A stretch of DNA of 59,046 bases, the filler included. It is 4 parts of 4 records of this genome, joined end to end, with 100 filler letters (N's around TTAATTAATTAA, not from the genome) between each part and the next. Parts side by side here need not be neighbours in the genome. Positions count along the whole stretch, not along the records: positions 30,009 to 43,858 come from SRR20825019_1000; 3 more parts are not named here. The stretch is one strand, 5' to 3'. Positions 29,909 to 43,958 of the stretch are shown piece by piece (position 1 is the stretch's first letter; every line of letters begins with the position of its first letter). The notes beneath the pieces are model-generated. The model had not been told where the DNA came from. It did no database searches and saw only the letters and a list, made by a program, of their open reading frames with translations. The position numbers and the translations under genes were made by a program.

Positions 29909-30008
29909 NNNNNNNNNNNNNNNNNNNNNNNNNNNNNNNNNNNNNNNNNNNNTTAATTAATTAANNNNNNNNNNNNNNNNNNNNNNNNNNNNNNNNNNNN
30001 NNNNNNNN
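29909..30008. other. Artificial contig linker N44-TTAATTAATTAA-N44
   Basis: Exact 100-nt spacer with stops in all six frames; base composition changes abruptly across it. Confidence 0.98.
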
Positions 30009-30417
30009 TGAAGAAATGGTAAAAGAATTAAACCTTGAACCAATAGCACGACTGGTAAGTTTTACTGCCGTAGGTGTAGAACCAAGGATCATGGGTATTG
30101 GACCAATAAAGGCAATTCCGAAAGCTTTAAAACAAGCTGGACTTAAACAAGATCAATTAGAACTAATAGAATTAAACGAAGCTTTTGCTTCGCAATCATT
30201 AGCTGTAATTAGAGAACTTGGCTTAGACAAAGAAAGAGTAAATGTAAATGGAGGGGCCATTGCTTTAGGGCATCCACTTGGTTGTACTGGCGCAAAACTT
30301 TCTGTCCAATTATTTGATGAAATGCGCAAAAGAAACCTTCAAGGAAAATATGGAATGGTAACAATGTGCGTAGGAACCGGGCAAGGAGCTGCGGGGGTTT
30401 ATGAATTTTTGAAATAG
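30009..30417 (+). CDS. fadA: Acetyl-CoA C-acyltransferase (thiolase), 5'-truncated by the contig end
   Basis: [13 protein letters not shown] and MCVGTGQG thiolase motifs. Confidence 0.93.
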
Positions 30418-30421
30418 TAGT

Positions 30422-30463
30422 AAGAACCAAGATTCTAGAGCCTAGAGCCAAGAGAAAAGACAA
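30422..30463 (+). repeat. Six 7-nt units (WAGANNN) upstream of the four-helix-bundle gene
   Basis: AAGAACC AAGATTC TAGAGCC TAGAGCC AAGAGAA AAGACAA. Confidence 0.8.
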
Positions 30464-30465
30464 TT

Positions 30466-30816
30466 ATGCATAATTTTAAAAAGCTAAAAATATGGATAGA
30501 GAGTATGAATCTTGTTTCTGAAACATATAAAATCACTCGAAATTTTCCAGATTTTGAAAAATTCGGTTTGATTTCACAAATGAATAGATGTGCTGTATCC
30601 ATACCCTCAAATATTGCTGAAGGCTCAAGTAAAAGCACTAATAAACATTTTAAACAATATTTGGAAGTTAGTTTGGGTTCGTCTTTTGAATTAGAAACGC
30701 AATTAATCATTGCTTTTAATGAATCATATATTTCAGAAGAAAATTTTAAACTTATAGAAGAAAGAATAAAACAAATTCAAAAAATGATTTTAGGATTCAA
30801 ATCTGGACTTGTATAA
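30466..30816 (+). CDS. Four-helix-bundle protein (23S rRNA IVP / Avd-like family)
   Basis: MHNFKKLKIW...FPDFEKFGLISQMNRCAVSIPSNIAEG...F..YL..SLGSSFELETQL, the family signature. Confidence 0.93.
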   Translation: MHNFKKLKIWIESMNLVSETYKITRNFPDFEKFGLISQMNRCAVSIPSNIAEGSSKSTNKHFKQYLEVSLGSSFELETQLIIAFNESYISEENFKLIEERIKQIQKMILGFKSGLV

Positions 30817-30844
30817 AAGTCTTGACTCTTGGTTCTTAAATCTA
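30817..30844 (-). repeat. Four 7-nt units (NNNTCTW), inverted relative to the upstream array
   Basis: AAGTCTT GACTCTT GGTTCTT AAATCTA. 30827-30838 is the exact reverse complement of 30421-30432 (TAAGAACCAAGA). Confidence 0.8.
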
Positions 30845-30857
30845 AATATCTCAAAAA

Positions 30858-32666
30858 ATGAATACAGAAAAAACAAAAACCGAATTGCTCCGAGGCGGAC
30901 AATTTTTAGTAAAAGAAACCAAGGCCGAAGATGTTTTTACTCCGGAAGATTTTTCGGAAGAACAAAAAATGATGCGCGATTCCGTTAAGGAATTTGTTGA
31001 CCGTGAAATTTGGCCGAATAAAGAACGATTTGAGCATAAAGATTATGCCCTAACTGAAGAAATAATGCGTAAAGCTGGTGATCTTGGCCTTTTGGGTGTT
31101 GCTGTGCCTGAGGAATATGGTGGATTGGGAATGGGCTTTGTAACAACAATGCTTGTTTGTGACTATATTTCGGGGGCTACAGGTTCAATTGCAACTGCAT
31201 TTGGCGCACATACCGGAATTGGCACCATGCCAATTACACTTTATGGAACCGACGAACAGATTAAAAAATATGTGCCAAAACTTGCCAGTGGCGAATGGTT
31301 TGGTGCGTATGCTTTAACGGAACCTGGAGCGGGAAGCGATGCCAACAGCGGAAAAACTAAGGCTGTTCTTTCTGAAGATGGCACCTATTATTCCATCTCT
31401 GGTCAGAAAATGTGGATTTCAAATGCTGGATTTTGTAGCACTTTTATAGTTTTCGCTAGAATCGAAGACGATAAAAACATTACTGGTTTTATTGTTGAAA
31501 ATGATCCTAGTAATGGAATTTCACTGGGCGAAGAAGAGAAAAAGTTAGGAATTCACTCCTCCTCTACGCGTCAGGTGTTCTTCAATGAAACAAAAGTTCC
31601 TGTAGAAAATATGCTTGCTGGTCGTGGAGAAGGGTTTAAAATAGCCATGAATGCGCTAAACGTAGGTAGAATAAAACTTGCCGCCGCAAGTCTTGATGCA
31701 CAGCGCCGTGTAATTTCAAGCGCCGTAAAATATGCTAACGAACGTATTCAGTTTAAAGTGCCAATTTCATCATTTGGAGCCATAAAACTAAAATTAGCTG
31801 AAATGGCTACCAACGCTTATGTGAGTGAAAGCGCAAGTTACCGTGCAGGAAAAGATATAGAAGATAGAATTACATTACGTCAACAAGCTGGAGCTACTCA
31901 TCAAGAAGCCGAATTAAAAGGTGTTGAAGAATATGCAATTGAATGTTCTATCTTAAAAGTTGCCGTTTCTGAAGACATTCAAAATTGTGCCGATGAAGGA
32001 ATTCAAATATTTGGCGGAATGGGCTTTAGCGCAGACACCCCCATGGAATCTGCTTGGCGAGATGCACGTATTGCACGCATTTATGAAGGTACAAATGAGA
32101 TAAATAGAATGCTAGCTGTAGGTATGCTTGTAAAAAAAGCAATGAAAGGTCACGTGGATCTTTTAAACCCTGCTCAGGCTGTAGCTTCCGAATTAATGGG
32201 AATCCCTTCTTTTGAAACACCCGACTATTCTGAATTACTTTCTGAAGAAAAGGCTATGGTTGCAAAATTGAAAAAAGTATTTTTAATGGTTGCAGGAAGT
32301 GCGGTTCAAAAGTATGGCACTGAACTAGAAGAACATCAGCAAACATTAATGGCAGCAGCAGATATTTTGATTGAAATCTATATGGCTGAAAGTGGAATAT
32401 TGAGAACCGAGAAAAACGCTAAACGTTTTGGAGCAGATGCGCAAAAAGAACAAATTGCAATGGCTCAATTATATCTATACCACGCTGTAGATATTATAAC
32501 TGTAAAAGCAAAAGAAGCAATTTTATCGTTCTCTGAAGGTGATGAACAACGTGCCATGCTTATGGGATTAAAACGTTTCACAAAATATCAAAACACCCCA
32601 AATATTGGTGAGTTAAGAAGAACAATTGCCGAAAAAGTGATTGCTGAAAACCAGTATCCTTTTTAA
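30858..32666 (+). CDS. Acyl-CoA dehydrogenase (long, FadE/ACAD9-like)
   Basis: YALTEPGAGSDA, GQKMWISN, KLGIHSSST, ERIQF, QIFGGMGF and IYEGTNEINR. Confidence 0.95.
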   Translation: MNTEKTKTELLRGGQFLVKETKAEDVFTPEDFSEEQKMMRDSVKEFVDREIWPNKERFEHKDYALTEEIMRKAGDLGLLGVAVPEEYGGLGMGFVTTMLVCDYISGATGSIATAFGAHTGIGTMPITLYGTDEQIKKYVPKLASGEWFGAYALTEPGAGSDANSGKTKAVLSEDGTYYSISGQKMWISNAGFCSTFIVFARIEDDKNITGFIVENDPSNGISLGEEEKKLGIHSSSTRQVFFNETKVPVENMLAGRGEGFKIAMNALNVGRIKLAAASLDAQRRVISSAVKYANERIQFKVPISSFGAIKLKLAEMATNAYVSESASYRAGKDIEDRITLRQQAGATHQEAELKGVEEYAIECSILKVAVSEDIQNCADEGIQIFGGMGFSADTPMESAWRDARIARIYEGTNEINRMLAVGMLVKKAMKGHVDLLNPAQAVASELMGIPSFETPDYSELLSEEKAMVAKLKKVFLMVAGSAVQKYGTELEEHQQTLMAAADILIEIYMAESGILRTEKNAKRFGADAQKEQIAMAQLYLYHAVDIITVKAKEAILSFSEGDEQRAMLMGLKRFTKYQNTPNIGELRRTIAEKVIAENQYPF

Positions 32667-32694
32667 TAAATTTTACTGAAATAGAATTTTTATA

Positions 32695-32726
32695 GGCCTA
32701 ATAGATTATTCTATTAGGCTTCTTTA
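32695..32726 (+). terminator. Intrinsic terminator after acyl-CoA dehydrogenase
   Basis: GCCTAATAGA-ttat-TCTATTAGGC followed by TTCTTT. Confidence 0.65.
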
Positions 32727-32822
32727 TTCTATAAATCATAAAATAATTCTAAAGTTTTAGGGATTTTTATATTTTCAATTTTTTGGCGTAAAGTTTGTTA
32801 TTTTTAAGCCAAAATCATTACA

Positions 32823-33689
32823 ATGAAAAAGCTCCAATTCCTACTTATTATTTTCACTCTAAATTTCACTTTTGCACAACAGAATTCTGAAGTATATATT
32901 TTAGATGTTTTTCCTGCCTATGAAGGCTTACAATTATTAAACCTTCATAATATAGCTAACGACGATGGGTACGATAACCAACCTTCATTTGCTTCAAATG
33001 AAATAGTTTATTTTGCAGGAAATAATAACGGTCAAACAGATATTGCTGAATATAATTTGAATACAAAGTCTAAAAAATGGCTTAATCAAAAAACGGAAGG
33101 CGGGGAATATTCTCCCCAAAAATTTCCCACAACTAACAACGTAGCTGCGGTTCGTTTAGACAAAGATGGCTTGCAAAGGCTTTATACCTATAATTCAAAA
33201 ACAGGGGTTGCAACTGAAGCAATTGAAAAGATACAAGTTGCATATTTTGCTTTTTATAATGATGAAGAGATTCTAGCAACTGTTCTTGATGGTGAAAGAA
33301 TGGATTTAGTGATGCTTAATCTAAATTCAAAAACTGCCGATACACTATTTTATAATGCGGGCAGATCGATTCAAAAAGTTCCAAAAACAAATGCAATGAG
33401 TTATACTTTAGTAAATGAAGAAGGAAATCTTGACCTATATTTATTGGAGATGAATACATCAGAAAGTTTTTTTATAACTGAGCTTCCCATTGGAATCCAA
33501 GATTATGTATGGATAAACGACACACAAATTCTTGTTGGTAGCGGTTCAAAACTTTATTTATACGACACTCTAGGAATTTCTGAATGGAACCGTGTTGCTT
33601 CACTTGAAGAGTATGGAATTAAAAACATTACCCGTATGGCTATAAGCCCCAATGGGAAGAAAATAGCAGTTGTAGCAGAAAAAAAATAA
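32823..33689 (+). CDS. Secreted TolB-like beta-propeller protein, function unknown
   Basis: Signal peptide ending TFA-QQ; GYDNQPSF and AISPNGKKIAVV PD40-like motifs. Confidence 0.7.
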   Translation: MKKLQFLLIIFTLNFTFAQQNSEVYILDVFPAYEGLQLLNLHNIANDDGYDNQPSFASNEIVYFAGNNNGQTDIAEYNLNTKSKKWLNQKTEGGEYSPQKFPTTNNVAAVRLDKDGLQRLYTYNSKTGVATEAIEKIQVAYFAFYNDEEILATVLDGERMDLVMLNLNSKTADTLFYNAGRSIQKVPKTNAMSYTLVNEEGNLDLYLLEMNTSESFFITELPIGIQDYVWINDTQILVGSGSKLYLYDTLGISEWNRVASLEEYGIKNITRMAISPNGKKIAVVAEKK

Positions 33690-33782
33690 GTACTTATTAA
33701 AGTTTTAAAAGCAAAAAAGGTTTTTTTGGAGCTTGTTGTTCTTTGAGTTTCTTTTTGGTATTTTTAAACAAAAATTGTTTGA

Positions 33783-35117
33783 ATGAAAAGCCTTTTATTA
33801 CTCTTTGCTACTTTTATAATTTCATCATTCTCCTTTTCCCAAACTGATCAAAAAATCTACGCTATCATCGATTCTGTTTCTTCAAAAAGAATAGAATTAG
33901 ATATTACAACGCTTGCTAATTTCGGCACAAGAAATACATTTAGTGATACAATTAGTAATACCCGTGGTATTGGTGCTGCGCGCCGATGGATTAAAACTGA
34001 ATTTGAAAAAATTTCTAAAGACTGCAGTAATTGTTTGAATGTATTCTATCAAAAAGATTTTGTAAAGGCAGAACCGAACAATCGCATTCCTCAAGATACT
34101 TGGATTGTAAATGTTGCAGCAATTCAAAAAGGAACAAAATACCCAAATCGCTACATTATAATGAGTGGTGATATTGACTCTAGAAACAGTGATGGAAGTG
34201 ATTTCACAAAAGATGCTCCAGGAGCTAATGACAATGCAAGTGGTATGGCTGGTACCATTGAAGCTGCACGCGTGCTCTCAAAATACAAATTTGAGAATAG
34301 TATCATCTATTTGGGATTAAGTGGAGAAGAACAAGGCCTTTTTGGTGGAAAAGGATTCGCAGATTTTGCAAAAAAGAACGATTGGGAGATTGTTGGCGTT
34401 TTTAATAATGATATGATAGGCAATATAAAAGGGGTGGATGGTGTAATTAGCAATCGTGATTTTAGAATTTTTAGCGAACCAGTTCCTCCTACAGAAACTG
34501 AAAAAGAGCGCCAAATGCGACGTTTTTATGGTGGTGAAGTAGATGGAATTTCACGTCAGCTTGCTCGTTACGTATATAAAACCACGAAAATATATATGCC
34601 CGAAATGAACCCTGTTATGGTATATAGGCTAGATCGCTTTGGTCGCGGTGGCCATCATCGTCCTTTTAATGATCTTGGTTGGGCAGGTATTAGAATCATG
34701 GAAGCACACGAAAATTACAACCAACAACATCAAGACATTCGTATAGAAAATGGAATTGAATACGGCGATATGTTAAAATTCGTGAACTTTGATTATGCAG
34801 CAAAACTTACTGCTGTAAACGCAATCAATTTAGCGCGTATTGCTTGGGCACCACCCGCACCTAAAAACGTAGCTATAGGTGGTATTGTAGAAGCATCAGC
34901 TAAATTAAAATGGGAGAAAGCAGATGGTGCTGTAGGTTATAAAATTTATTGGCGGGACACCACCTCTCCTACTTGGGATCACAGTCGTTATGTTGGCGAT
35001 GTTTCTGAATTTACATTAAAAGGAATTGTAATTGATAATTCATTTTTTGGTGTAGCTTCCGTAGGAAAAAATGACAGTGAAAGTGTTGTTGTATTTCCAA
35101 ATTCTGTATTTCGATAA
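33783..35117 (+). CDS. M28 family metallopeptidase with C-terminal FN3-like domain
   Basis: SGDIDSR, PGANDNASG, GEEQGLFG, NNDMIG and GHHRPF; signal peptide. Confidence 0.88.
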   Translation: MKSLLLLFATFIISSFSFSQTDQKIYAIIDSVSSKRIELDITTLANFGTRNTFSDTISNTRGIGAARRWIKTEFEKISKDCSNCLNVFYQKDFVKAEPNNRIPQDTWIVNVAAIQKGTKYPNRYIIMSGDIDSRNSDGSDFTKDAPGANDNASGMAGTIEAARVLSKYKFENSIIYLGLSGEEQGLFGGKGFADFAKKNDWEIVGVFNNDMIGNIKGVDGVISNRDFRIFSEPVPPTETEKERQMRRFYGGEVDGISRQLARYVYKTTKIYMPEMNPVMVYRLDRFGRGGHHRPFNDLGWAGIRIMEAHENYNQQHQDIRIENGIEYGDMLKFVNFDYAAKLTAVNAINLARIAWAPPAPKNVAIGGIVEASAKLKWEKADGAVGYKIYWRDTTSPTWDHSRYVGDVSEFTLKGIVIDNSFFGVASVGKNDSESVVVFPNSVFR

Positions 35118-35127
35118 AATAAAAATT

Positions 35128-36753
35128 ATGAAAGAAAAAGTTATAATTACCGCTCTCTTGCTTATAAACTTTGCTGCTTTTGCACAAGAATTCTCCCGTG
35201 CAGATACACTTCGCGGTAGCTTAACACCTGAAAGAATTTGGTGGAATGTTACGTATTATGATTTGAAAGTTTCAGTTAATCCTTCCGAAAAATCCATTGA
35301 AGGAAGTAATACTATTTCATACAAAACATTGGAAACAAATCAAATAATGCAAATAGATTTACAGGCTCCAATGAAAATTGATAAAGTGGTTCAAGATGGA
35401 CAAGAAATAACTTTCACTTCGGATGGGGATGCGCATTTTTTAAAACTTCAAAAAAAACAGAAAAAAGGAAAAGAGGATAAAATAACGGTTTATTTCTCAG
35501 GAAAACCGATTGTAGCAAGGCGTCCACCGTGGGATGGCGGATTTACTTGGACGAAAGATAGCAATGGAAAGGATTTTATAGCAACCGCAAACGAAGGCAT
35601 TGGCTCTAGTGTTTGGTGGCCACTAAAAGACCACCCATCAGATGAGCCTGATAAGGGCATTACTATTTCAATTACTGCTCCAAAGCACCTTATGGATGTT
35701 AGCAATGGAAGATTGAAAAAAGTTATTGAAAATGAAACAACAAAAACGTGGGTTTGGGAAGTTGTAAACCCAATAAATGCATACGGCGTAAACATTAATA
35801 TTGGTGATTATGTACACTGGAGTGAAAAATACAAAGGTGAAAAAGGGATGCTGGATATGGATTATTATGTGCTTCGTGAAAATGAAGCAAAAGCTAAAAT
35901 TCAGTTTAAACAAGCGGCAATGACCATGGAAGCTTTTGAGCATTGGTTTGGCCCCTACCCTTTTTATGAAGACGGTTATAAGCTAGTTGAAGCCCCATAT
36001 TTAGGAATGGAGCACCAAAGTAGTGTAACTTATGGCAACAAGTTTGAAAATGGATATTTAGGCCGAGATCTTTCAAGAACTGGCTGGGGTTTAAAGTTCG
36101 ATTTTATAATTATTCATGAAAGTGGTCATGAGTGGTTTGCAAATAATATTACCAATAATGATATTGCAGATATGTGGATACATGAAGGGTTTACCTGCTA
36201 TTCAGAAAATCTATATTTGGATTATTTCTTTGGAAAAAAAGCATCATCTGAATATGTAATTGGTATTCGAAAAAACATTTTGAACGACCGCCCAATTATT
36301 GGCGAATACAATGTTGATAATCAAGGGAGCAGCGATATGTATTATAAAGGAGCCAATATTCTTCATACAATTCGGCAACTGATTCAAGATGATGAAAAAT
36401 GGCGCCAAATTCTTCGTGGTCTCAATGAAGACTTTTACCACCAAACAATTAGCAGCAAACAAGTTGAGGACTACATAAGCAAGAAAAGTGGTTTAAATTT
36501 AACTGAATTCTGGGATCAATATTTACGAACCACAGAAATCCCAAAAATTGAATATTCCTTTAATGAAGATACGTTGAAGTTTCGCTATGTAAATACCATA
36601 GAAAATTTTGAAATGCCTATTATTGCTGAAATAAACGGAACTGAAGAATGGATTTACCCAAGTTCAGAATGGAAGACCAAAGTGTTTTCATCAGCAATTG
36701 AAACTGTGGAAATAAAAAAAGATTTTTATGTAAATTCTGAAAAATTAAAGTAA
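35128..36753 (+). CDS. M1 family aminopeptidase
   Basis: GMEHQS, HESGHEWF-x-W..EG and YYKG. The likely start is MKEKVII (35128), which carries a signal peptide. Confidence 0.9.
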   Translation: MKEKVIITALLLINFAAFAQEFSRADTLRGSLTPERIWWNVTYYDLKVSVNPSEKSIEGSNTISYKTLETNQIMQIDLQAPMKIDKVVQDGQEITFTSDGDAHFLKLQKKQKKGKEDKITVYFSGKPIVARRPPWDGGFTWTKDSNGKDFIATANEGIGSSVWWPLKDHPSDEPDKGITISITAPKHLMDVSNGRLKKVIENETTKTWVWEVVNPINAYGVNINIGDYVHWSEKYKGEKGMLDMDYYVLRENEAKAKIQFKQAAMTMEAFEHWFGPYPFYEDGYKLVEAPYLGMEHQSSVTYGNKFENGYLGRDLSRTGWGLKFDFIIIHESGHEWFANNITNNDIADMWIHEGFTCYSENLYLDYFFGKKASSEYVIGIRKNILNDRPIIGEYNVDNQGSSDMYYKGANILHTIRQLIQDDEKWRQILRGLNEDFYHQTISSKQVEDYISKKSGLNLTEFWDQYLRTTEIPKIEYSFNEDTLKFRYVNTIENFEMPIIAEINGTEEWIYPSSEWKTKVFSSAIETVEIKKDFYVNSEKLK

Positions 36754-37325
36754 TGGATGAAAAACCAGAACTTTATTTTGAAGACGATTCGCAATGGCGA
36801 AATTGGTTACACGAAAATCACGATACGTTTCCAAAAGGGGTTTATTTAATTTTTTACAAATTAGAAACTGGAATTCCTACAATGCGTTGGGAAGAGGCTG
36901 TAAAAGTAGCTTTATGCTATGGTTGGATAGACAGCACAGTAAAGAGTTTAGGAGCTGGAAAAAGACGCCAATATTTCTGTAAACGCAACCCAAAAAGTGT
37001 TTGGAGTGCATTAAATAAATCATATTTAAAGGAATTAGAAAAAAATGGGCTTCTTCAAGAAAGTGGAAAGAAAATTATAGTAGAAGCTAAAAAAAATGGT
37101 AGCTGGACTGCTTTAGACGCAGTTGAAAAATTAATTATTCCTGAAGATCTTCAAAAAAGTTTTCAAGGAAATCCACTAGCTTATTCAAATTATAAAAAAT
37201 TCCCGCCAAGTAGTCGAAAAAGTTATCTTTATTGGCTCAATCAAGCAAAAAGGGAAGAAACAAGAGCAAAACGTATTTCAGAAATAACTGCGCTTTGTGA
37301 AAAAAATATAAAATCAAGAAATTAA
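36753..37325 (+). CDS. YdeI/OmpD-associated family protein
   Basis: WRNWLHENH, ALCYGWIDS, SVWSALNK and AKREETRAKRI. Confidence 0.88.
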   Translation: MDEKPELYFEDDSQWRNWLHENHDTFPKGVYLIFYKLETGIPTMRWEEAVKVALCYGWIDSTVKSLGAGKRRQYFCKRNPKSVWSALNKSYLKELEKNGLLQESGKKIIVEAKKNGSWTALDAVEKLIIPEDLQKSFQGNPLAYSNYKKFPPSSRKSYLYWLNQAKREETRAKRISEITALCEKNIKSRN

Positions 37326-37343
37326 ATACTTAACATACCTACT

Positions 37344-40300
37344 ATGAGAATTTTTCCATTTCTAATCTTATTTACTATTTCAACTACATTTTTCGCACAA
37401 AAAAAAGATTCTAAAGCCAAAGAAAAAGAAGAATCAAAGTGGGAAGTAGCCAATCCAGGTAACGATTTTAACTACAAAACACATTCCTTTTCTACAAATG
37501 AAGGCACTTGGATGAATCTTGATGTAAGTCCAGATGGTAAAACCATAGTTTTTGATTTGTTGGGTGATATTTATAGCATGCCAATTACAGGCGGTGAAGC
37601 CAAAATACTTAGCGCAGGCATTCCTTTTGAAATTCAACCTAGATTTAGTCCAGATGGTACAAAAATTTCATTCACAAGTGATGCTGGTGGTGGAGATAAT
37701 ATTTGGGTAATGAATAGCGATGGAACCGATGCGAAGCAGATTACTAAAGAAGATTTCAGGCTTTTAAACAATGCGGTTTGGAGTGCAGATGGTAACTATT
37801 TAATAGCACGAAAGCATTTTTCATCCGGAAGAAGTTTAGGTGCTGGAGAAATGTGGCAATATCATAAATCTGGCGGAAGTGGTTTGCAACTCACAAAACG
37901 TAAAAACGACCAACAAGATGTAAATGAACCTTTTGTTTCACAAGACGGAAAATACCTTTACTACTGTGAAGATGTATATCCAGGTGGTTATTTTCAATAT
38001 AACAAAGACCCAAACGATCAAATTTATGTGATAAAACGATATGAATTTGAAACTGGAAAAACAGAAACAATTACAGGTGGACCAGGAAGTGCTTCGAGGC
38101 CAACAATTTCACCTGACGGAAAAAAATTGGCATTCATAAAAAGAGTTCGAACCAAAAGTGTTTTGTTTTTACACGATTTAGAAACTGGTGAAGAATGGCC
38201 TATTTACGATGCTTTAAACAAAGACCAACAGGAAGCTTGGGCACTTTTTGGCACATACCCAAACTTCAGTTGGATGCCTAATAACCAAGAAATCGTTTTT
38301 TGGAGTGGTGGAAAAATAAATAAGATCGAGGTGAATTCACTTACTGTTACAGATATTCCTTTTAGTGTAAAGGTGAATATTGATTTGGCAGAAACCGTGC
38401 ATTTCAACAATAAAATTGAGTCTGAAACATTTACACCAAAAATGATTCGTCATGCAGTTACTTCACCAAATGGGAAGTTTATTGTTTTTAGTGCGCTAGG
38501 GCATTTATATAAAAAAACCCTACCAAATGGTACTCCAGAACGCTTAACGAATAGTACAGATTTTGAATTTGAACCGTGTTTTTCACCTAATGGCACTGAA
38601 ATTAGCTTCGTAACTTGGAATGATCTTGAAAAAGGTGCAATTCGAAAAATTTCAATTAATGGTGGAAATTCAACAAAAATAACCTCTGAAAAAGGAATTT
38701 ATAGAACCCCTTCCTATTCCCCAGATGGTACAAAAATTGTCTTCAGAAAAGAAAAAGGAAATACCGATCAAGGATTTACCTACACTAAAAATGATGGTAT
38801 TTACATTATAGACGCAAATGGGAACAATGAAAAATTTGTTGTTGATAAAGGAGAATACCCGCTATTTAGTAATGATGCAAAAAGAATTTTTCTTCAAACA
38901 GGTGGCACTTATTTTGGTAATATTGAAAAACAATTGCTTAGTGTAAATCTTGATGGAGCGGATGAAAAAACACATATTAAATCAAAATACGCAAATAGAT
39001 TAATACCAAGTCCAGATAATAAATGGATTGCTTTTACAAACCTTCACAAGCTATATGTTGCGCCTTTCCCGCTTAACGGGCAAACTATTGATTTAGATAA
39101 CAACAGTAAATCTGTACCTGTTTCTCAACTCGCAAAAGATGCTGGCATCAATATTCATTGGTCATCAAACAGTGAAAAATTAATGTGGACATTGGGTGAT
39201 GAATATTTTAGCAATAAACTTAAGGATCGTTTTACTTTCTTACCTGATTCTCCAGAAAAAGTCCCTGAAATAACAGAATCGGGAATAAAAATTGACTTAC
39301 AGGCTCCTATAGATATACCTACCGGTAAAATTGCTTTTACCAATGCACGAATAATAACAATGGAAAACGACAAAGTGATTGAAAATGGAACCATTGTTAT
39401 AAACGGAAATAAAATTGAAGCAATAGGTGAAACTGATAAAGTCTCTATCCCTGCTGGAACAAAGGTATATGCTTCGGAAGGAAAAACAATTATGCCAGGA
39501 ATGGTAGATGCGCATGCACATGTGGGGGCTTTTCGTTATGGATTACCTTCACAACAATATTGGCCTTTTATGGCAAATTTGGCGTTTGGTGTAACAACAT
39601 CTCACGATCCATCTGCAAATACTGAAACGGTTTTTACGCTTTCTGAACTTCAAAAAAGTGGAAATTTGGTTGGACCTAGATTATATTCAACAGGGTTTAT
39701 TCTTTATGGTGCCGATGGCGATTTTAAAGCAGTGATTAATAATTTAGAAGATGCAAGAAGTAGTATTCGGCGTACAAAAGCATTTGGTGCTAAAAGTGTA
39801 AAAAGTTACAATCAGCCACGTAGAGACCAGCGCCAACAAGTTTTACAGGCTGCAAGAGAAATGCAAATTAACGTTGTGCCAGAAGGTGGCTCAACGTTTT
39901 ATCACAATTTAACGATGGTAATTGACGGCCATACAGGTGTAGAGCACAATATACCGGTAGCCCCAGTTTATAAAGATGTTTTGGAGATTTGGGGTAAAAG
40001 TGGTTCTGGCTATACTCCTACGCTAATTGTAAATTATGGCGGAATGAATGGAGAATTTTACTTCTATGAACGCGACAATGTGTGGGAAAATGAAAAATTA
40101 TTAAATTTTACACCGCGTAGTATTGTAGATAGCCGTTCACGCCACAGAATAAAATCTCCACAAGAAGAATATAAAAACGGTCATATTTTAGTTTCTGAAA
40201 CTGTTAAAGAACTTAGTGAAGCAGGTGTAAAAGTTAATATGGGCGCTCATGGGCAGTTACAAGGCCTTGGAGCTCATTGGGAAACTTGGATGTTACAACA

Positions 40301-40634
40301 AGGTGGAATGAGTAATTTGGAAGCATTAAAAGCCGCAACTATAAATTCTGCGGAATACATTGGCGCTGGGCAAGATATTGGCTCTCTTAAAGTAGGAAAA
40401 CTAGCCGATTTAATCGTAATGGATGAAAACCCACTTGAGAATATAGAAAATACTCAAACCATAAAAATGGTTATGATTAATGGAAGGTTATACGATTCTG
40501 AAACGATGAATGAAATTGGAAACAACCCAAAAGATAGACTTCCTTTTTTCTGGGAAATGGATAAATACAATCAAGCTTTTCCATGGCATCAAGATACTCA
40601 AGGTTTTATGGATGGCGGCTGTAGCTGCCATTAA
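37344..40634 (+). CDS. Secreted amidohydrolase with N-terminal TolB/PD40 beta-propellers
   Basis: Repeated P.FSPDG motifs; PGMVDAHAH, GAHGQLQG and GSLKVGKLADL. Confidence 0.9.
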   Translation: MRIFPFLILFTISTTFFAQKKDSKAKEKEESKWEVANPGNDFNYKTHSFSTNEGTWMNLDVSPDGKTIVFDLLGDIYSMPITGGEAKILSAGIPFEIQPRFSPDGTKISFTSDAGGGDNIWVMNSDGTDAKQITKEDFRLLNNAVWSADGNYLIARKHFSSGRSLGAGEMWQYHKSGGSGLQLTKRKNDQQDVNEPFVSQDGKYLYYCEDVYPGGYFQYNKDPNDQIYVIKRYEFETGKTETITGGPGSASRPTISPDGKKLAFIKRVRTKSVLFLHDLETGEEWPIYDALNKDQQEAWALFGTYPNFSWMPNNQEIVFWSGGKINKIEVNSLTVTDIPFSVKVNIDLAETVHFNNKIESETFTPKMIRHAVTSPNGKFIVFSALGHLYKKTLPNGTPERLTNSTDFEFEPCFSPNGTEISFVTWNDLEKGAIRKISINGGNSTKITSEKGIYRTPSYSPDGTKIVFRKEKGNTDQGFTYTKNDGIYIIDANGNNEKFVVDKGEYPLFSNDAKRIFLQTGGTYFGNIEKQLLSVNLDGADEKTHIKSKYANRLIPSPDNKWIAFTNLHKLYVAPFPLNGQTIDLDNNSKSVPVSQLAKDAGINIHWSSNSEKLMWTLGDEYFSNKLKDRFTFLPDSPEKVPEITESGIKIDLQAPIDIPTGKIAFTNARIITMENDKVIENGTIVINGNKIEAIGETDKVSIPAGTKVYASEGKTIMPGMVDAHAHVGAFRYGLPSQQYWPFMANLAFGVTTSHDPSANTETVFTLSELQKSGNLVGPRLYSTGFILYGADGDFKAVINNLEDARSSIRRTKAFGAKSVKSYNQPRRDQRQQVLQAAREMQINVVPEGGSTFYHNLTMVIDGHTGVEHNIPVAPVYKDVLEIWGKSGSGYTPTLIVNYGGMNGEFYFYERDNVWENEKLLNFTPRSIVDSRSRHRIKSPQEEYKNGHILVSETVKELSEAGVKVNMGAHGQLQGLGAHWETWMLQQGGMSNLEALKAATINSAEYIGAGQDIGSLKVGKLADLIVMDENPLENIENTQTIKMVMINGRLYDSETMNEIGNNPKDRLPFFWEMDKYNQAFPWHQDTQGFMDGGCSCH

Positions 40635-40652
40635 TAGCTTATAAAAAACAAA

Positions 40653-40961
40653 ATGTACCGAGCTTATTGGCAGTTTTATAAAACTATAGTGCCTTTTATA
40701 ATTGTATTTTCTATTATATGCAGTTTGTTTGGAGGATTGCTTTGGGCATCTTTGCTTTTTTTAATTATTAGCCCTTTTATTGGAATGATTGGTTTTAAAG
40801 TGTTTTATAAAGAACAGTTCTATTTTTATTTCAATTTAGGCTTATCAAAGTTTAAATTACTAAAAGCTTCATTTATTATAAACTTTCTAATAGGAATACC
40901 TGTTTTTGGCTTGCTATTTTTAATATTAAACCTTTTCATTGGCATTAATACAACTACATAG
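40653..40961 (+). CDS. Small membrane protein, probably the partner of the downstream ABC ATPase
   Basis: Three hydrophobic segments and a YFYFNLGLSK motif; overlaps the ATPase gene. Confidence 0.65.
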   Translation: MYRAYWQFYKTIVPFIIVFSIICSLFGGLLWASLLFLIISPFIGMIGFKVFYKEQFYFYFNLGLSKFKLLKASFIINFLIGIPVFGLLFLILNLFIGINTTT

Positions 40962-41610
40962 TGCATCAAAAACTTTTGGTAAGAAAGAAATCATCAAAAA
41001 TGTTTCTTTTTCACTTGAAACAGGCACTATTTTAGGCATTTTCGGAAGAAACGGCTGCGGAAAATCGACGCTGCTCAAAATGATTTTTGGAACTGTAATA
41101 GCTGACTCTATTAAAATTTCTTTCGATAATAATTCTTTTAATCCAAGGAATACTATTAATAATAGACAGATTGCTTATTTACCACAATTTTCTTTTTTGC
41201 CAAAAAACATAAAAGTTCGCGACTTGATTCCCATATATTTTTCTGAAGAGAAGGTCCAAGATGCAATTTTTTACGATCCTTTAATTGCAACATTTACTGC
41301 AAAGAAAGTAAGTGACTTATCCTTAGGGCAAGTTCGTTATTTGGAGGTGCTTTTAGCTGGTAATTCCCCACATCCCTTTATTATGTTCGATGAACCATTT
41401 TCGATGGTAGACCCATTATATAAAATTGAAATATCGAATTTTCTGAACAAAATTAAAGTTGAAAAAGGAATACTTATAACCGATCATCATTATAAAGATG
41501 TTTTAAACATTACAACTCAAAATTTATTGATTAAAAATGGTTTGTCCCACTCCATTGAAAGCAAAGAAAGTTTAAAGGAATTCAACTACCTCAGTGAAAA
41601 TTCGATATAA
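40939..41610 (+). CDS. ABC transporter ATP-binding protein
   Basis: Walker A GRNGCGKST, signature LSLGQ, Walker B FDEPF and ITDH. Confidence 0.9.
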   Translation: MALIQLHSASKTFGKKEIIKNVSFSLETGTILGIFGRNGCGKSTLLKMIFGTVIADSIKISFDNNSFNPRNTINNRQIAYLPQFSFLPKNIKVRDLIPIYFSEEKVQDAIFYDPLIATFTAKKVSDLSLGQVRYLEVLLAGNSPHPFIMFDEPFSMVDPLYKIEISNFLNKIKVEKGILITDHHYKDVLNITTQNLLIKNGLSHSIESKESLKEFNYLSENSI

Positions 41611-41635
41611 AAAAAGCCTCATTGCTGAGGCTTAT
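41608..41635. terminator. Terminator hairpin between the convergent ABC and fasciclin genes
   Basis: An A-run, then AAGCCTCA-ttgc-TGAGGCTT. Confidence 0.7.
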
Positions 41636-41657
41636 AAAATTAATTTTTAAGTTTGAA

Positions 41658-42290
41658 TTATTTTTTTGGCATCAACACTTTATCAATTGTGTGAACAATC
41701 CCGTTTGATGCATCCATATCTGCACTTGTTACGGTTGCAGTATTTCCGTTGGCATCTTTTATCATTACTTTTCCATCTTTTTCAGACAAGGTTAAAATTT
41801 CGCCATTCATAGTGGTAACATCAAGCTTATTATTTGCTTCTTTTATTTTTACTAAAACGTCTGTAGCATTCATTTTCCCTTGAAGTACATGATATTTCAA
41901 TACTTTTTGAAGATTTTCTTTGTTTTCTGGCTTCATAAGTTCTTCGCGAGTTGCTTTCTTAACTTTTTCAAAAGCATCGTTTGTAGGCGCAAATACTGTA
42001 TATTCTCCTTCTGCTTTTAAAGTTTGAGCTAAATCTGCAGCTTGCAAAGCGCTAACTAAAGTAGAAAGTTCTGAATTTCCCATTGCTTTTGCAGCAATTG
42101 AATTCGCTTCCATTTCAGCCATTTTCATTTTCGTTTCTTCTTCTAATTTCATTAAAGAATCACTTTCACGCTGCATACGCATTTCTTCTGCCTGTGCTTG
42201 GGCTTCCGCTTCTTTCTTTTTTGAATCATTACAGCTCGCAAATAGCATTGTTACTACTGCAGCCGACATAAAAATTGTTTTTAGTTTCAT
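41658..42290 (-). CDS. Fasciclin (FAS1) domain lipoprotein
   Basis: Lipobox FAS-C; YTVFAPTNDAF, LKYHV and NGIVHTIDKVL. Confidence 0.92.
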   Translation of the reverse strand: MKLKTIFMSAAVVTMLFASCNDSKKKEAEAQAQAEEMRMQRESDSLMKLEEETKMKMAEMEANSIAAKAMGNSELSTLVSALQAADLAQTLKAEGEYTVFAPTNDAFEKVKKATREELMKPENKENLQKVLKYHVLQGKMNATDVLVKIKEANNKLDVTTMNGEILTLSEKDGKVMIKDANGNTATVTSADMDASNGIVHTIDKVLMPKK

Positions 42291-42315
42291 AGTTTTATAG
42301 ATGATTTGTTTACAC

Positions 42316-42323
42316 CAAAGATA
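42316..42323 (-). promoter_or_regulatory. Bacteroidetes -7 promoter element (TAnnTTTG) for the fasciclin gene
   Basis: TATCTTTG on the minus strand ~25 nt upstream of the start codon. Confidence 0.45.
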
Positions 42324-42483
42324 TTCTAAGTATTGCTAATTTTTTATTAATTCTGATTAATATTTAGTTAAAACAATATCAAATATTTAAATATTAATTC
42401 CATGTATTAAAGTTTTGCAAATACATAAATCTAAAACACTATATTTTTGTATATTTAAAAAATAACTTTTAAACTTTAAAAAA

Positions 42484-42861
42484 ATGATTAAATCAAAATA
42501 CCAAAGTGTTTTGGATTTAGGTGAAAAACTTAATATTCAAAATGGCGATGTAAAAGAAGAAAATGGACAATTAAAAGTTTGGGGAACTGCAAATACTCCT
42601 TATGAAAAAAATCTTCTTTGGGATGAAATAAAACGTGTTGGTGGTGAAAGCCCAACAGATATTATGGCAGATATACAAGTTGCAGACTCATCGGTTTATG
42701 CACACCATACTGTAAAAAGCGGAGAATCTCTTAGCAAAATAGCTAAGCATTATTATAAAGATCCAAATAAATACAATGCAATTTTTGAAGCAAATAGAGG
42801 AAAATTAAAATCTGCTGATCTTATTCACCCTGGTGATGAATTAGTAATCCCCCATATTTAA
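42484..42861 (+). CDS. BON-like + LysM protein (Kbp/YgaU-like)
   Basis: HTVKSGESLSKIAKHYY...IFEANR...LIHPGDELVIP. Confidence 0.88.
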   Translation: MIKSKYQSVLDLGEKLNIQNGDVKEENGQLKVWGTANTPYEKNLLWDEIKRVGGESPTDIMADIQVADSSVYAHHTVKSGESLSKIAKHYYKDPNKYNAIFEANRGKLKSADLIHPGDELVIPHI

Positions 42862-42876
42862 TTTTAAAGAACAATT

Positions 42877-42914
42877 AAAAAACCCCGCAAGCACAAATAC
42901 TTGCGGGGTTTTTA
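42877..42914. terminator. Bidirectional intrinsic terminator
   Basis: AAAAACCCCGCAAG-cacaaata-CTTGCGGGGTTTTT between convergent genes. Confidence 0.88.
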
Positions 42915-42924
42915 GTTTGTTAAT

Positions 42925-43858
42925 TTAAAGTCCACTAATGTAGCTTCCATATAAATCTTTAAAATGCAATCCATTTCCCAAACTAAATTTACTTAGCTTA
43001 TTATTCTCAGCCAAAGCCCAGAGTATAACTTCCTTTAAAAAATACGCATCGTTTTTTGAAGTTTCAGGTTGATATTTTTCAATTAACTGTTGAAGCGGGA
43101 TAATTCTATCTAGTTCACTTTTATATGCTACATCTGAAAAAGAATCGAGAAGTTCAAAATCATTTTCTTCAAAAAACCAAGCTACTATTTCAGCATACGG
43201 ATCTATAGCGTCTTGTTTAGAAAGTTTTTCAATCTTCGGAAATTTTTCTAAAAATGTAGTGTTTACAGCATCTACAATTAACTGTTGTGCAACTTGCGAA
43301 ACGCCTTCTTGCTCGCCTTCATAAACCAATTCTACTTTTCCAGTAATTGAAGGAATAATACCAATAAAATCGCCCAAGCGAAGACTTGTTTTTTCTTCGC
43401 CATTTTGTAAAGCTCTTCGTTCTGCAGTGCTCAAGAGGTTTTCAAAAGCAGTTATACTTAATCGTGCACTTACGCCACTTTTTGCATCTATAAAATCATT
43501 TTTTCTAGCTTCAAAACTAATTTGTTCTAAGATATCTTTTGCTAATTCTGGTACATAAATATTTGATTTCGCATTGATAGCTTCCGTAGTTTCTTGAGCG
43601 GTAATTGCACGTGCAGTTTCTATTTTTTTAGGGTAATGCGTTAAAATTTGCGAACCAATCCTATCTTTTAAAGGAGTTACAATACTTCCTCTATTGGTGT
43701 AATCTTCTGGGTTTGCAGTAAAAACAAACTGAATATCTAAGGGCAATCGCACCGCAAAACCACGAATCTGAATATCGCCTTCTTGCAAAATATTAAAAAG
43801 TGCCACTTGAATTCTAGGTTGTAAATCTGGCAATTCATTAATAACAAAAATGCAACGA
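42925..43858 (-). CDS. Magnesium-chelatase-like AAA+ ATPase, 5'-truncated by the contig end
   Basis: FVINELPDLQPRIQVALFNILQEGDIQIRG, FTANPEDYTNRGSIVTPLKDRIGSQI and SGVSAR. Confidence 0.85.
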
Positions 43859-43958
43859 NNNNNNNNNNNNNNNNNNNNNNNNNNNNNNNNNNNNNNNNNN
43901 NNTTAATTAATTAANNNNNNNNNNNNNNNNNNNNNNNNNNNNNNNNNNNNNNNNNNNN
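43859..43958. other. Artificial contig linker N44-TTAATTAATTAA-N44
   Basis: Identical to the other two linkers. Confidence 0.98.

Follow-up and report, generated by a model that had tools for sequence, protein, structure and literature searches.

The subject of this analysis is a stretch of 59,046 nt, referred to below as the window, and within it a gene for a four-helix-bundle (4HB) protein of the PF05635 family, which lies between a thiolase gene and an acyl-CoA dehydrogenase (ACAD) gene and is enclosed by two inverted arrays of a 7-nt unit. We interpret this cassette as an element of the intervening sequence (IVS) type that lives in operon mRNA, the arms of which would loop the open reading frame (ORF) out of the transcript or direct processing by RNase III, and assign this interpretation a probability of roughly 0.5; together with its broader implication for bacterial heptamer repeats it is unproven. 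The analysis was confined to the 13.85-kb contig at 30009-43859, which is only one contig of the source genome, and to loci related to it.

The upstream arm is the purine-rich spacer of 48 nt at 30418-30465 (plus strand, as for all genes and arms given here), which consists largely of six in-phase WAGANNN units at 30422-30463, the array ending 2 nt before the ATG of the 4HB gene. The downstream arm, a spacer of 41 nt at 30817-30857, carries four NNNTCTW units at 30817-30844, which are the inverted complement of the upstream units and are followed by the A-rich, unpaired leader of the ACAD gene. These units had been counted in a preliminary description of the window, and the count is correct to the base; the inverted match reported there was likewise recovered, with the 19 nt at 30421-30439 being complementary to 30820-30838 at 17 of 19 positions (89%), the first 12 of them without a mismatch. 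In an alternative register, 30444-30470 pairs with 30810-30836 (27 nt, 78% complementary); its 5′ half covers the 4HB start codon, and this is the register used in the minimum free energy (MFE) fold. The identity of each spacer to itself at a lag of 7 nt was 0.66 upstream and 0.50 downstream, as opposed to 0.15-0.31 and 0.21-0.39 at lags 1-6 and 8-13. Four WAGA motifs spaced by 7 nt occur four times in the window (three overlapping occurrences on the plus strand, one on the minus strand), all of them in the two cassette spacers, and were absent from 100 shuffles. When the region 30410-30865 was folded as RNA, the MFE structure (-88.4 kcal/mol) contained a stem between the spacers (z = -2.96, none of 100 shuffles as good), and the duplex of the two arms was predicted at -36.4 kcal/mol, compared with -11.6 ± 4.8 kcal/mol for the flanks of 688 control genes in the related loci. 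As a plain inverted repeat the arms are unremarkable, since the contig holds 19 such pairs of 16 nt or longer, this one included, and Tandem Repeats Finder (TRF) barely detects the degenerate arrays (2.9 copies only, 30435-30454); what makes the arms significant is their periodicity, their position exactly at the ends of the ORF and their conservation. Around the cassette, signals for a sigma-70-like promoter or a terminator showed no excess over shuffles with a model not made for Bacteroidota, and no target-site duplication is evident at the arm ends in the window sequence.

The 4HB gene at 30466-30816 encodes 116 amino acids and scores above the cut-off for both PF05635 (23S_rRNA_IVP; 128.6 bits vs. 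33.8, 1.4e-37, residues 5-109 on positions 1-105 of the 106 of the profile) and TIGR02436 (112.2 bits vs. 24, 1.3e-32). The family named in the preliminary description is thereby confirmed, while the relation to Avd that it also mentioned is weak and falls below the curated cut-offs (bAvd 26.5 bits vs. 40, 9.7e-06; NCBIfam Avd 24.1 bits vs. 80, 3.4e-05). The translation contains the motif RxxxSxxxNxxE with R41, S45, N49 and E52, and measured against the longer form GxxRxxxSxxxNxxE, as given by Zhang et al. (PMC3936711), it has all four residues and a Q in place of the G before R41. The sole solved relative by sequence is the PDB entry 2GSC (XCC0516; 1.3e-19, residues 5-102), which comprises five chains. 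Lin et al. reportedly described 2GSC as a pentamer, and Avd forms pentamers. No family of the PADLOC defence models matched the 4HB protein at E up to 0.01, and no homolog was found in the phage collection. At least 7,999 relatives were scored, the top 120 of which are 70-87% identical and belong to many genera of Flavobacteriaceae. The ratio dN/dS was 0.11 between the window and 57 orthologs and 0.08 in 200 closer pairs, which indicates purifying selection.

In order to compare the junction between relatives, the 4HB protein was scanned against species genomes; of the 189 relatives obtained, the best 80 loci were kept (L001-L080), and because they were chosen through the 4HB protein they are biased towards occupied sites. 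The gene order in these relatives is fadB-thiolase-4HB-ACAD, which bears out the earlier placement inside a beta-oxidation operon, of whose upstream part the window itself holds only 135 amino acids of the thiolase. At the thiolase|ACAD junction (J2), a PF05635 gene was present in 73 of the 76 assessable loci, comprising 70 orthologous junctions, L047 and L064, and L072, which contains a distant PF05635 paralog (1.3e-23). The other three (L062, L076 and L080) contain a GC-rich element instead, with remnant CAAGA-type units persisting at L076, and a minimal J2 spacer was found in none of the 76. This element of 108-143 nt has an AT-rich middle between two hairpins that are rich in GC, and it replaces the heptamer cassette at nine fad junctions, namely these three and the fadB|thiolase junction (J1) of L045, L048, L049, L053, L073 and L075. 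In a quick tree of the 4HB proteins, 62 J2 proteins group together (SH-aLRT 87, under the 95 mark) with genus-coherent subgroups, and the junction labels change 6 times on this tree as opposed to 20.6 times for shuffled labels, with none of 200 shuffles as low. By a strict test, the ORF is intact in 58 of the 70 aligned orthologous junctions, and seven (L007, L009, L010, L043, L046, L075, L078) have in-frame stops or a frameshift and keep both arms; some of these seven loci are metagenome-assembled genomes, in which sequencing error is possible. The number of heptamer units varies among the 70 aligned junctions, and the arrays are homologous throughout the alignment.

Since nearly all assessable J2 sites are occupied, the tree follows the host genera and dN/dS is about 0.1, the J2 cassette is old, vertically inherited and functional, and not a recent insertion. 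The proposal of an inserted, self-contained cassette therefore has to be divided: the recent mobility that it implied is contradicted by occupancy, tree and purifying selection, whereas the self-contained character stands, as the gene and its arrays recur with other heptamers at other junctions and in other phyla. Junctions without the gene, for which a search in relatives had been suggested, do exist (3 of 76 at J2, and the shortest spacers at J1 described below), yet J2 corresponds to the fixed state that the preliminary description had named as speaking against its own proposal. Its expectation that paralogs would show periodic inverted flanks was borne out at J1, in the nqr operon and a third operon of relatives, and on plasmids.

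Among 73 loci assessable at J1, 17 contain a second PF05635 gene, 42-71% identical and distributed over at least five separate clades. An 84-aa remnant is found in L060 and an unrelated ORF in L026; eight loci have spacers of 3-5 nt and 46 have spacers of 50-134 nt. In 30 of these 46, the lag-7 identity is at least 0.45, and we read them as hairpins of inverted heptamer arrays without an ORF; six of the 46 carry the GC-rich element. Twelve clear ORF-less hairpins, chosen by hand, gave z values of -1.7 to -5.75 (10 of 12 at or below -2.3) and are built from helices of 4-6 bp with an interruption every 7 nt. In L042, J1 has retained the arms of a TAGTATT-type cassette without an ORF, and in L069 a single arm is left, so that the junction states form a decay series from the full cassette to the bare junction. 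Members of the same subfamily (70-71% identical) occur in the nqr operon as nqrE|4HB|nqrF in L070 and L074, with a further PF05635 paralog at nqrD|nqrE in L070, and L027 has a co-oriented PF05635 paralog in a third operon. All Flavobacteriaceae copies with examined neighbours, at fad J1 and J2, in nqr and in one further operon, run in the same direction as the operon around them.

The association of the arrays with the gene is also seen in the pooled loci. The flanks of 92 4HB genes had lag-7 identities of 0.48 and 0.53, compared with 0.32 and 0.33 for 695 and 705 control flanks, and the arm duplex averaged -25.7 kcal/mol with 76% at or below -20 kcal/mol, compared with -11.6 kcal/mol and 6% for control genes. 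A stringent scan of 1.46 Mb yielded 80 arrays, of which 44 are no more than 90 nt away from a recognised 4HB gene, five at unrecognised or cut 4HB genes, 21 in J1 spacers, two upstream of fadB and eight elsewhere. Arrays of 7-10 units of the ATAACTC/TGAACTC type stand directly before the fadB start, in the operon leader, in L001 (820-899) and L003 (6208-6282); the eight away from recognised 4HB genes and fad junctions are at L001 9608-9660, L010 15010-15068, L002 8565-8673, L019 14837, L040 18884, L041 17328, L050 18804 and L061 18801. The heptamer type is lineage-specific and is carried by both arms, the types in Flavobacteriaceae being CAAGANN, CTAGANN, AAAGANN, TAGTATT-type, TAAGACG-type and TGAATNN. 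Of 106 cassettes in all, 99 have their purine-rich array 5′ of the gene, and among the plasmid cases 10 of 12 do.

On plasmids, 19 homologs were found, all of them distant and none from Bacteroidota. Thirteen were examined and 12 of these carry arrays of 7 or 8 nt; nine have inverted arrays on both sides, two have direct arrays, one has an array on one side and one has none. According to TRF, Nostoc plasmids combine AGTAGGG (7.9 copies) with TCCCTAC (4.9) and AGGGAAC (3.9) with CTGTTCC (7.4); further hosts of inverted arrays are Geminocystis, Anabaena, Stanieria, Aulosira, N. punctiforme, Azospirillum and Picosynechococcus (8-nt units), and direct arrays belong to Pseudanabaena and Gemmatirosa (8-nt units). 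The arm pairs include GTAGGGA/TCCCTAC, CAGGGAA/CTGTTCC, AAAGGGA/TCCCTTT and GGTGACA/TGTCACC, and the host regions are cas, nrd, secretion and conjugation gene clusters. The 8-nt units of the Picosynechococcus plasmid (L092, cmr2|4HB|cmr3, inverted) and of Gemmatirosa (L089, direct) show that periods other than 7 occur. In two plasmids of cyanobacteria, the 4HB gene is antisense between co-oriented host genes (L081, nrdB/nrdA; L083, secretion genes). The layout shared between junctions and phyla supports the view that, at the level of sequence, the gene with its inverted arrays is a portable, self-contained unit.

The cassette consists of a PF05635 4HB gene and of two arrays built from one 7-nt unit, the 5′ array being purine-rich and the 3′ array made of the complementary unit; it is placed exactly between the thiolase stop codon and the ACAD leader and showed no promoter or terminator signal of its own. 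According to the interpretation preferred here, it would be co-transcribed with the operon, and pairing of its arms would give an interrupted stem of about 20-30 bp, reaching from the thiolase stop codon to about 13 nt before the ACAD ATG. Such a stem would loop out the 4HB cistron and leave the thiolase and ACAD cistrons effectively adjacent, as in a compact junction; the arms would thus allow an insert in a tight junction, in the same way as an IVS folds out of rRNA. The start codon of the 4HB gene, which is in or beside the stem, would be occluded, and the stem would be a likely substrate of RNase III by analogy with the 23S rRNA version of Coxiella. More speculatively, the 4HB protein, which is distantly like Avd and has a solved relative (2GSC) that crystallised with five chains, might be conserved for a function of its own, perhaps the binding of the repeat arms. 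Folding predictions agree with this picture and with the earlier suggestion that the transcript could close a stem around the ORF in several registers, two of which were predicted in the window: single-sequence MFE structures have at least 10 bp between the spacers in 67 of the 70 orthologous junctions (median 22 bp) with the ORF looped out, and the median distance of the start of the predicted stem from the thiolase stop is -1 nt, that of its end from the following ACAD ATG 13 nt. In 60 of the 70 junctions, the first unit (TAAGA or TAGA) includes the thiolase stop codon. The idea that the heptamers supply stop codons in all three frames was rejected, as it holds for only 5 of 70 upstream spacers.

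Several results weigh against this interpretation. RNAalifold found no consensus long-range stem in the alignment of the 70 junctions (-1.9 kcal/mol), which is probably due to register differences between the heptamer arrays. When the stem was defined by hand, 80.6% of the cells pair, compared with 80.8% when the partners were shuffled among sequences, so that the pairing is fully explained by the conserved core motif, and the covariation score in the orthologous junctions was 0.084 vs. 0.088 for shuffled partners. In the main clade, own arms pair at -26.95 kcal/mol and swapped arms at -25.25 kcal/mol, with the own arm better in 43 of 78 cases (p = 0.06). Mismatches on the sense strand show no enrichment of G.U (60) over A.C (112), counts that are not phylogenetically independent. 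Direct sharing of 6-mers exceeds inverted sharing in 19 of 101 loci, including the plasmid loci L082 and L089; this measure was used together with reading of the flanks, as the automatic comparison of consensus heptamers is noisy in A-rich flanks (18 of 101 at 6/7 matches). No transcript evidence for the Flavobacteriaceae copies was found, a transcriptome paper on F. psychrophilum being without relevant text, and the presence of RNase III in these hosts is assumed. Finally, strong purifying selection on the 4HB protein would not be predicted for a purely self-neutralising passenger. It follows from this selection that the protein matters, for which neither pairing of the arms nor their use as binding sites gives a reason.

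Because the variable positions of the repeats do not covary in orthologs, the RNA stem is unproven against a reading in which the arrays are bound by protein on DNA or RNA. In the simplest case their own oligomeric 4HB protein would recognise the core (NAG or AAGA every 7 nt) unit by unit on single-stranded RNA or on DNA, possibly to regulate itself, to control the cistrons on either side or to protect the transcript, and the inverted symmetry would arise because the motif is needed on both sides. We consider this rather unlikely, although it would account for the conservation of a core of only 4-5 nt beside 2-3 variable positions without covariation, for the direct arrays in 19 of 101 loci, which a stem cannot explain, and for the purifying selection on a protein whose relative 2GSC has five chains in the entry. 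TRAP offers a precedent, in which triplet repeats are bound by a ring protein. It would also fit the specificity of the heptamer type for each protein clade, which common descent of gene and arms, however, explains too. Against this reading, both arms are kept around the seven broken orthologous ORFs, the ORF-less hairpins with their 4-nt loops resemble true hairpins, and the rRNA version is cut in the stem by RNase III (PMC4990558).

Still less probable in our view is a mobile element at the level of DNA, in which the arrays would act as terminal inverted repeats and offer iterated binding sites to a mobility factor, provided in trans or by the 4HB protein itself, and the ORF-less hairpins would be miniature non-autonomous derivatives. 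The variety of sites occupied by the unit (both fad junctions, nqr and a third operon, as well as plasmid-borne cas, nrd and conjugation genes) speaks in its favour, as do the differing PF05635 subfamilies at one junction in different hosts (the distant paralog at J2 of L072), the range of junction states from 3-5 nt to the full cassette, and the opinion of older authors, quoted in PMC4990558, that IVSs are remnants of transposition or mobile elements. Yet a Pfam domain search of the 12 ORFs of the contig revealed no transposase, integrase or reverse transcriptase, nor was a target-site duplication evident. The relatives yielded no near-identical copies in differing contexts; across species, copies at other junctions form separate old clades, in line with the 6 label changes against 20.6, and the J2 copy was inherited vertically across many genera. 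Random insertion of DNA would, in addition, not be expected to produce the strict co-orientation with Flavobacteriaceae operons. We regard as improbable, and as the weakest of the explanations, that the arrays are a functionless by-product, heptamer microsatellites generated by replication slippage in AT-rich spacers beside a small, long-domesticated gene, with a complementarity that arises by accident from a shared simple motif. In many bacteria, heptamers are reported to outnumber all other long simple-sequence repeats, an abundance ascribed to polymerase slippage in work cited in PMC4679880 and PMC4692102, and both the variable unit number among relatives and among Coxiella strains (PMC4990558) and the missing covariation in orthologs would fit. 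Slippage does not explain, on the other hand, that one lineage after another, with unrelated units, has a 3′ array that is reverse-complementary to its 5′ array, or that 99 of 106 cassettes have the purine-rich array on the 5′ side; nor are the retention of arms around broken ORFs and the distribution in the stringent scan, where 44 of 80 arrays are at most 90 nt from a recognised 4HB gene and only 8 are outside 4HB genes and fad junctions, to be expected from it.

If the IVS-type interpretation is extended beyond this operon, PF05635 genes with inverted 7-8-nt arrays might form one ancient, cross-phylum class of self-neutralising elements in any heavily transcribed RNA, be it rRNA or operon mRNA. 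The abundant intergenic heptamer hairpins of Xanthomonas, cyanobacteria and Flavobacteriaceae would be its ORF-less descendants, and an oligomeric 4HB protein would read the repeats unit by unit and drive processing, maintenance or spread; we put this forward tentatively, as a possibility with the odds against it. Three subjects have been treated in separate literatures, namely the rRNA IVSs with an S23p ORF, the large orphan 4HB family and the over-abundant heptamer repeats of operons, and our results suggest that they are facets of one thing. If this is true, ordinary operons of harmless, culturable marine bacteria could be used to test where IVSs come from and what they do, a candidate partner protein would be at hand for the heptamer repeats, and annotation could flag a new class of intercistronic elements that possibly shapes RNA processing and translational coupling in operons. 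No paper that draws a general link between the PF05635 family and flanking heptamer arrays was found in a search that left out most subscription journals, and older print may contain one.

The window joins unrelated contigs by linkers (N runs around TTAATTAATTAA) at 29910-30008, 43860-43958 and about 52676. The first of these (29910-30008, no strand) is artificial and not biology; it connects an unrelated GC-rich contig, which has a poly-C run at its end, to the contig studied here, with a jump in GC content from 0.5-0.6 to 0.33. The GC content is about 0.33 throughout 30009-43859 and 0.5-0.7 in the rest of the window. Judged by its closest relatives, the contig is from an Aequorivita-like member of the Flavobacteriaceae: identity to L001-L004, L009 and L010 is 91-95% for the thiolase and 89-92% for ACAD, and the 4HB protein nests among the same loci. 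The thiolase (acetyl-CoA acyltransferase; 30010-30417, Thiolase_C 7.2e-47, stop codon TAG at 30415-30417) is represented only by its C-terminal 135 amino acids because the contig starts there. The next cistron after the cassette is the ACAD gene at 30858-32666 (602 amino acids; Acyl-CoA_dh_N, _M and _1, Acyl-CoA-dh_C), the product of which is 73-93% identical across 76 related loci. Within the contig there is no rRNA match, and no Rfam family was found at the cassette. Between convergent genes at 42862-42929, a hairpin with 30-nt arms, a GC-rich core and flanking A and T runs looks like a bidirectional terminator by its sequence, and a cluster of sub-threshold Rfam matches there is caused by this hairpin. 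An exact direct repeat of 11 nt at 30777-30787 (3′ end of the 4HB gene) and 30851-30861 (across the ACAD start codon) is probably due to chance in A-rich sequence.

With integron gene cassettes, the element shares a promoterless ORF, imperfect inverted repeats at its bounds and expression from a host promoter; integron cassettes, however, have attC at one end only, require an integrase and attI, neither of which is present here, and come in arrays. Repetitive extragenic palindromic (REP) sequences, bacterial interspersed mosaic elements (BIMEs) and miniature inverted-repeat transposable elements (MITEs) are similar in being short palindromic elements that are tolerated in operons and differ in presence between relatives. 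They differ from the cassette in that the latter has tandem 7-nt units and can hold a conserved ORF in the loop, while a cognate transposase is not known and a multi-copy, near-identical family is not shown here. The Avd protein of diversity-generating retroelements belongs to a related four-helix-bundle fold family with weak sequence likeness, but the scores of our protein are below the cut-offs and the 12 ORFs of the contig include no reverse transcriptase. STRR is the name given to heptamer repeats of the cyanobacterial type (Mazel).

In X. campestris, 186 GGGAATC arrays were described, 70 of them in convergent pairs 21-135 nt apart, which follow stop codons at a distance of a few nt within operons and were interpreted as G-quadruplexes (Rehm et al., PMC4692102). 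One array of four units, at a distance of 6 nt from bccP and downstream of it, extends over the start of XCC0516, the gene of the 2GSC protein (PMC4692102, S2 Table A, row 15). TAACTGA heptamers occur in Beggiatoaceae, cyanobacteria and five Bacteroidetes, and a post-transcriptional regulator was proposed (MacGregor, PMC4679880); the main texts of both papers, as far as available, contain no match for “S23” or “four helix”. The GGGAATC arrays of Xanthomonas, the GGGGAYT arrays of cyanobacteria and others and the TAACTGA repeats resemble the arms of the cassette in their 7-nt units, usually about four, in their position after an upstream stop codon and in their occurrence in conserved operons, and the convergent pairs of Xanthomonas have the form of the ORF-less J1 hairpins. 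Unlike the Xanthomonas and cyanobacterial repeats, which are read as G-quadruplexes or regulator sites, the arrays described here have other unit sequences and an ORF between them.

The closest parallel is with the IVSs of 23S rRNA that contain an S23p/IVP ORF, as in Leptospira and Coxiella, since both have a PF05635 protein in the loop and terminal inverted repeats that close a stem around the ORF, which is a prediction only in our case. IVP genes are also found between cas genes (Zhang et al., PMC3936711) and, in bacteria of the Candidate Phyla Radiation, in 16S and 23S insertions (bioRxiv 10.1101/2024.02.27.582315). The Coxiella 23S IVS has a terminal stem of 28 bp, is cleaved by RNase III in vitro and carries two to three tandem heptamers and a degenerate one directly before the S23p ATG, with the 5′ cut at the first repeat and a heptamer copy number that differs between strains (PMC4990558); tandem heptamers directly before the ATG are thus common to both elements. 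The cassette differs from the rRNA versions in its host, a protein-coding operon with thiolase and ACAD as flanks instead of a 23S rRNA helix, and from Coxiella in an ORF under purifying selection, whereas the Coxiella ORF is described as decaying. Cleavage has been demonstrated for Coxiella and is predicted for the operon cassette, in which arrays on both sides of the gene are documented.

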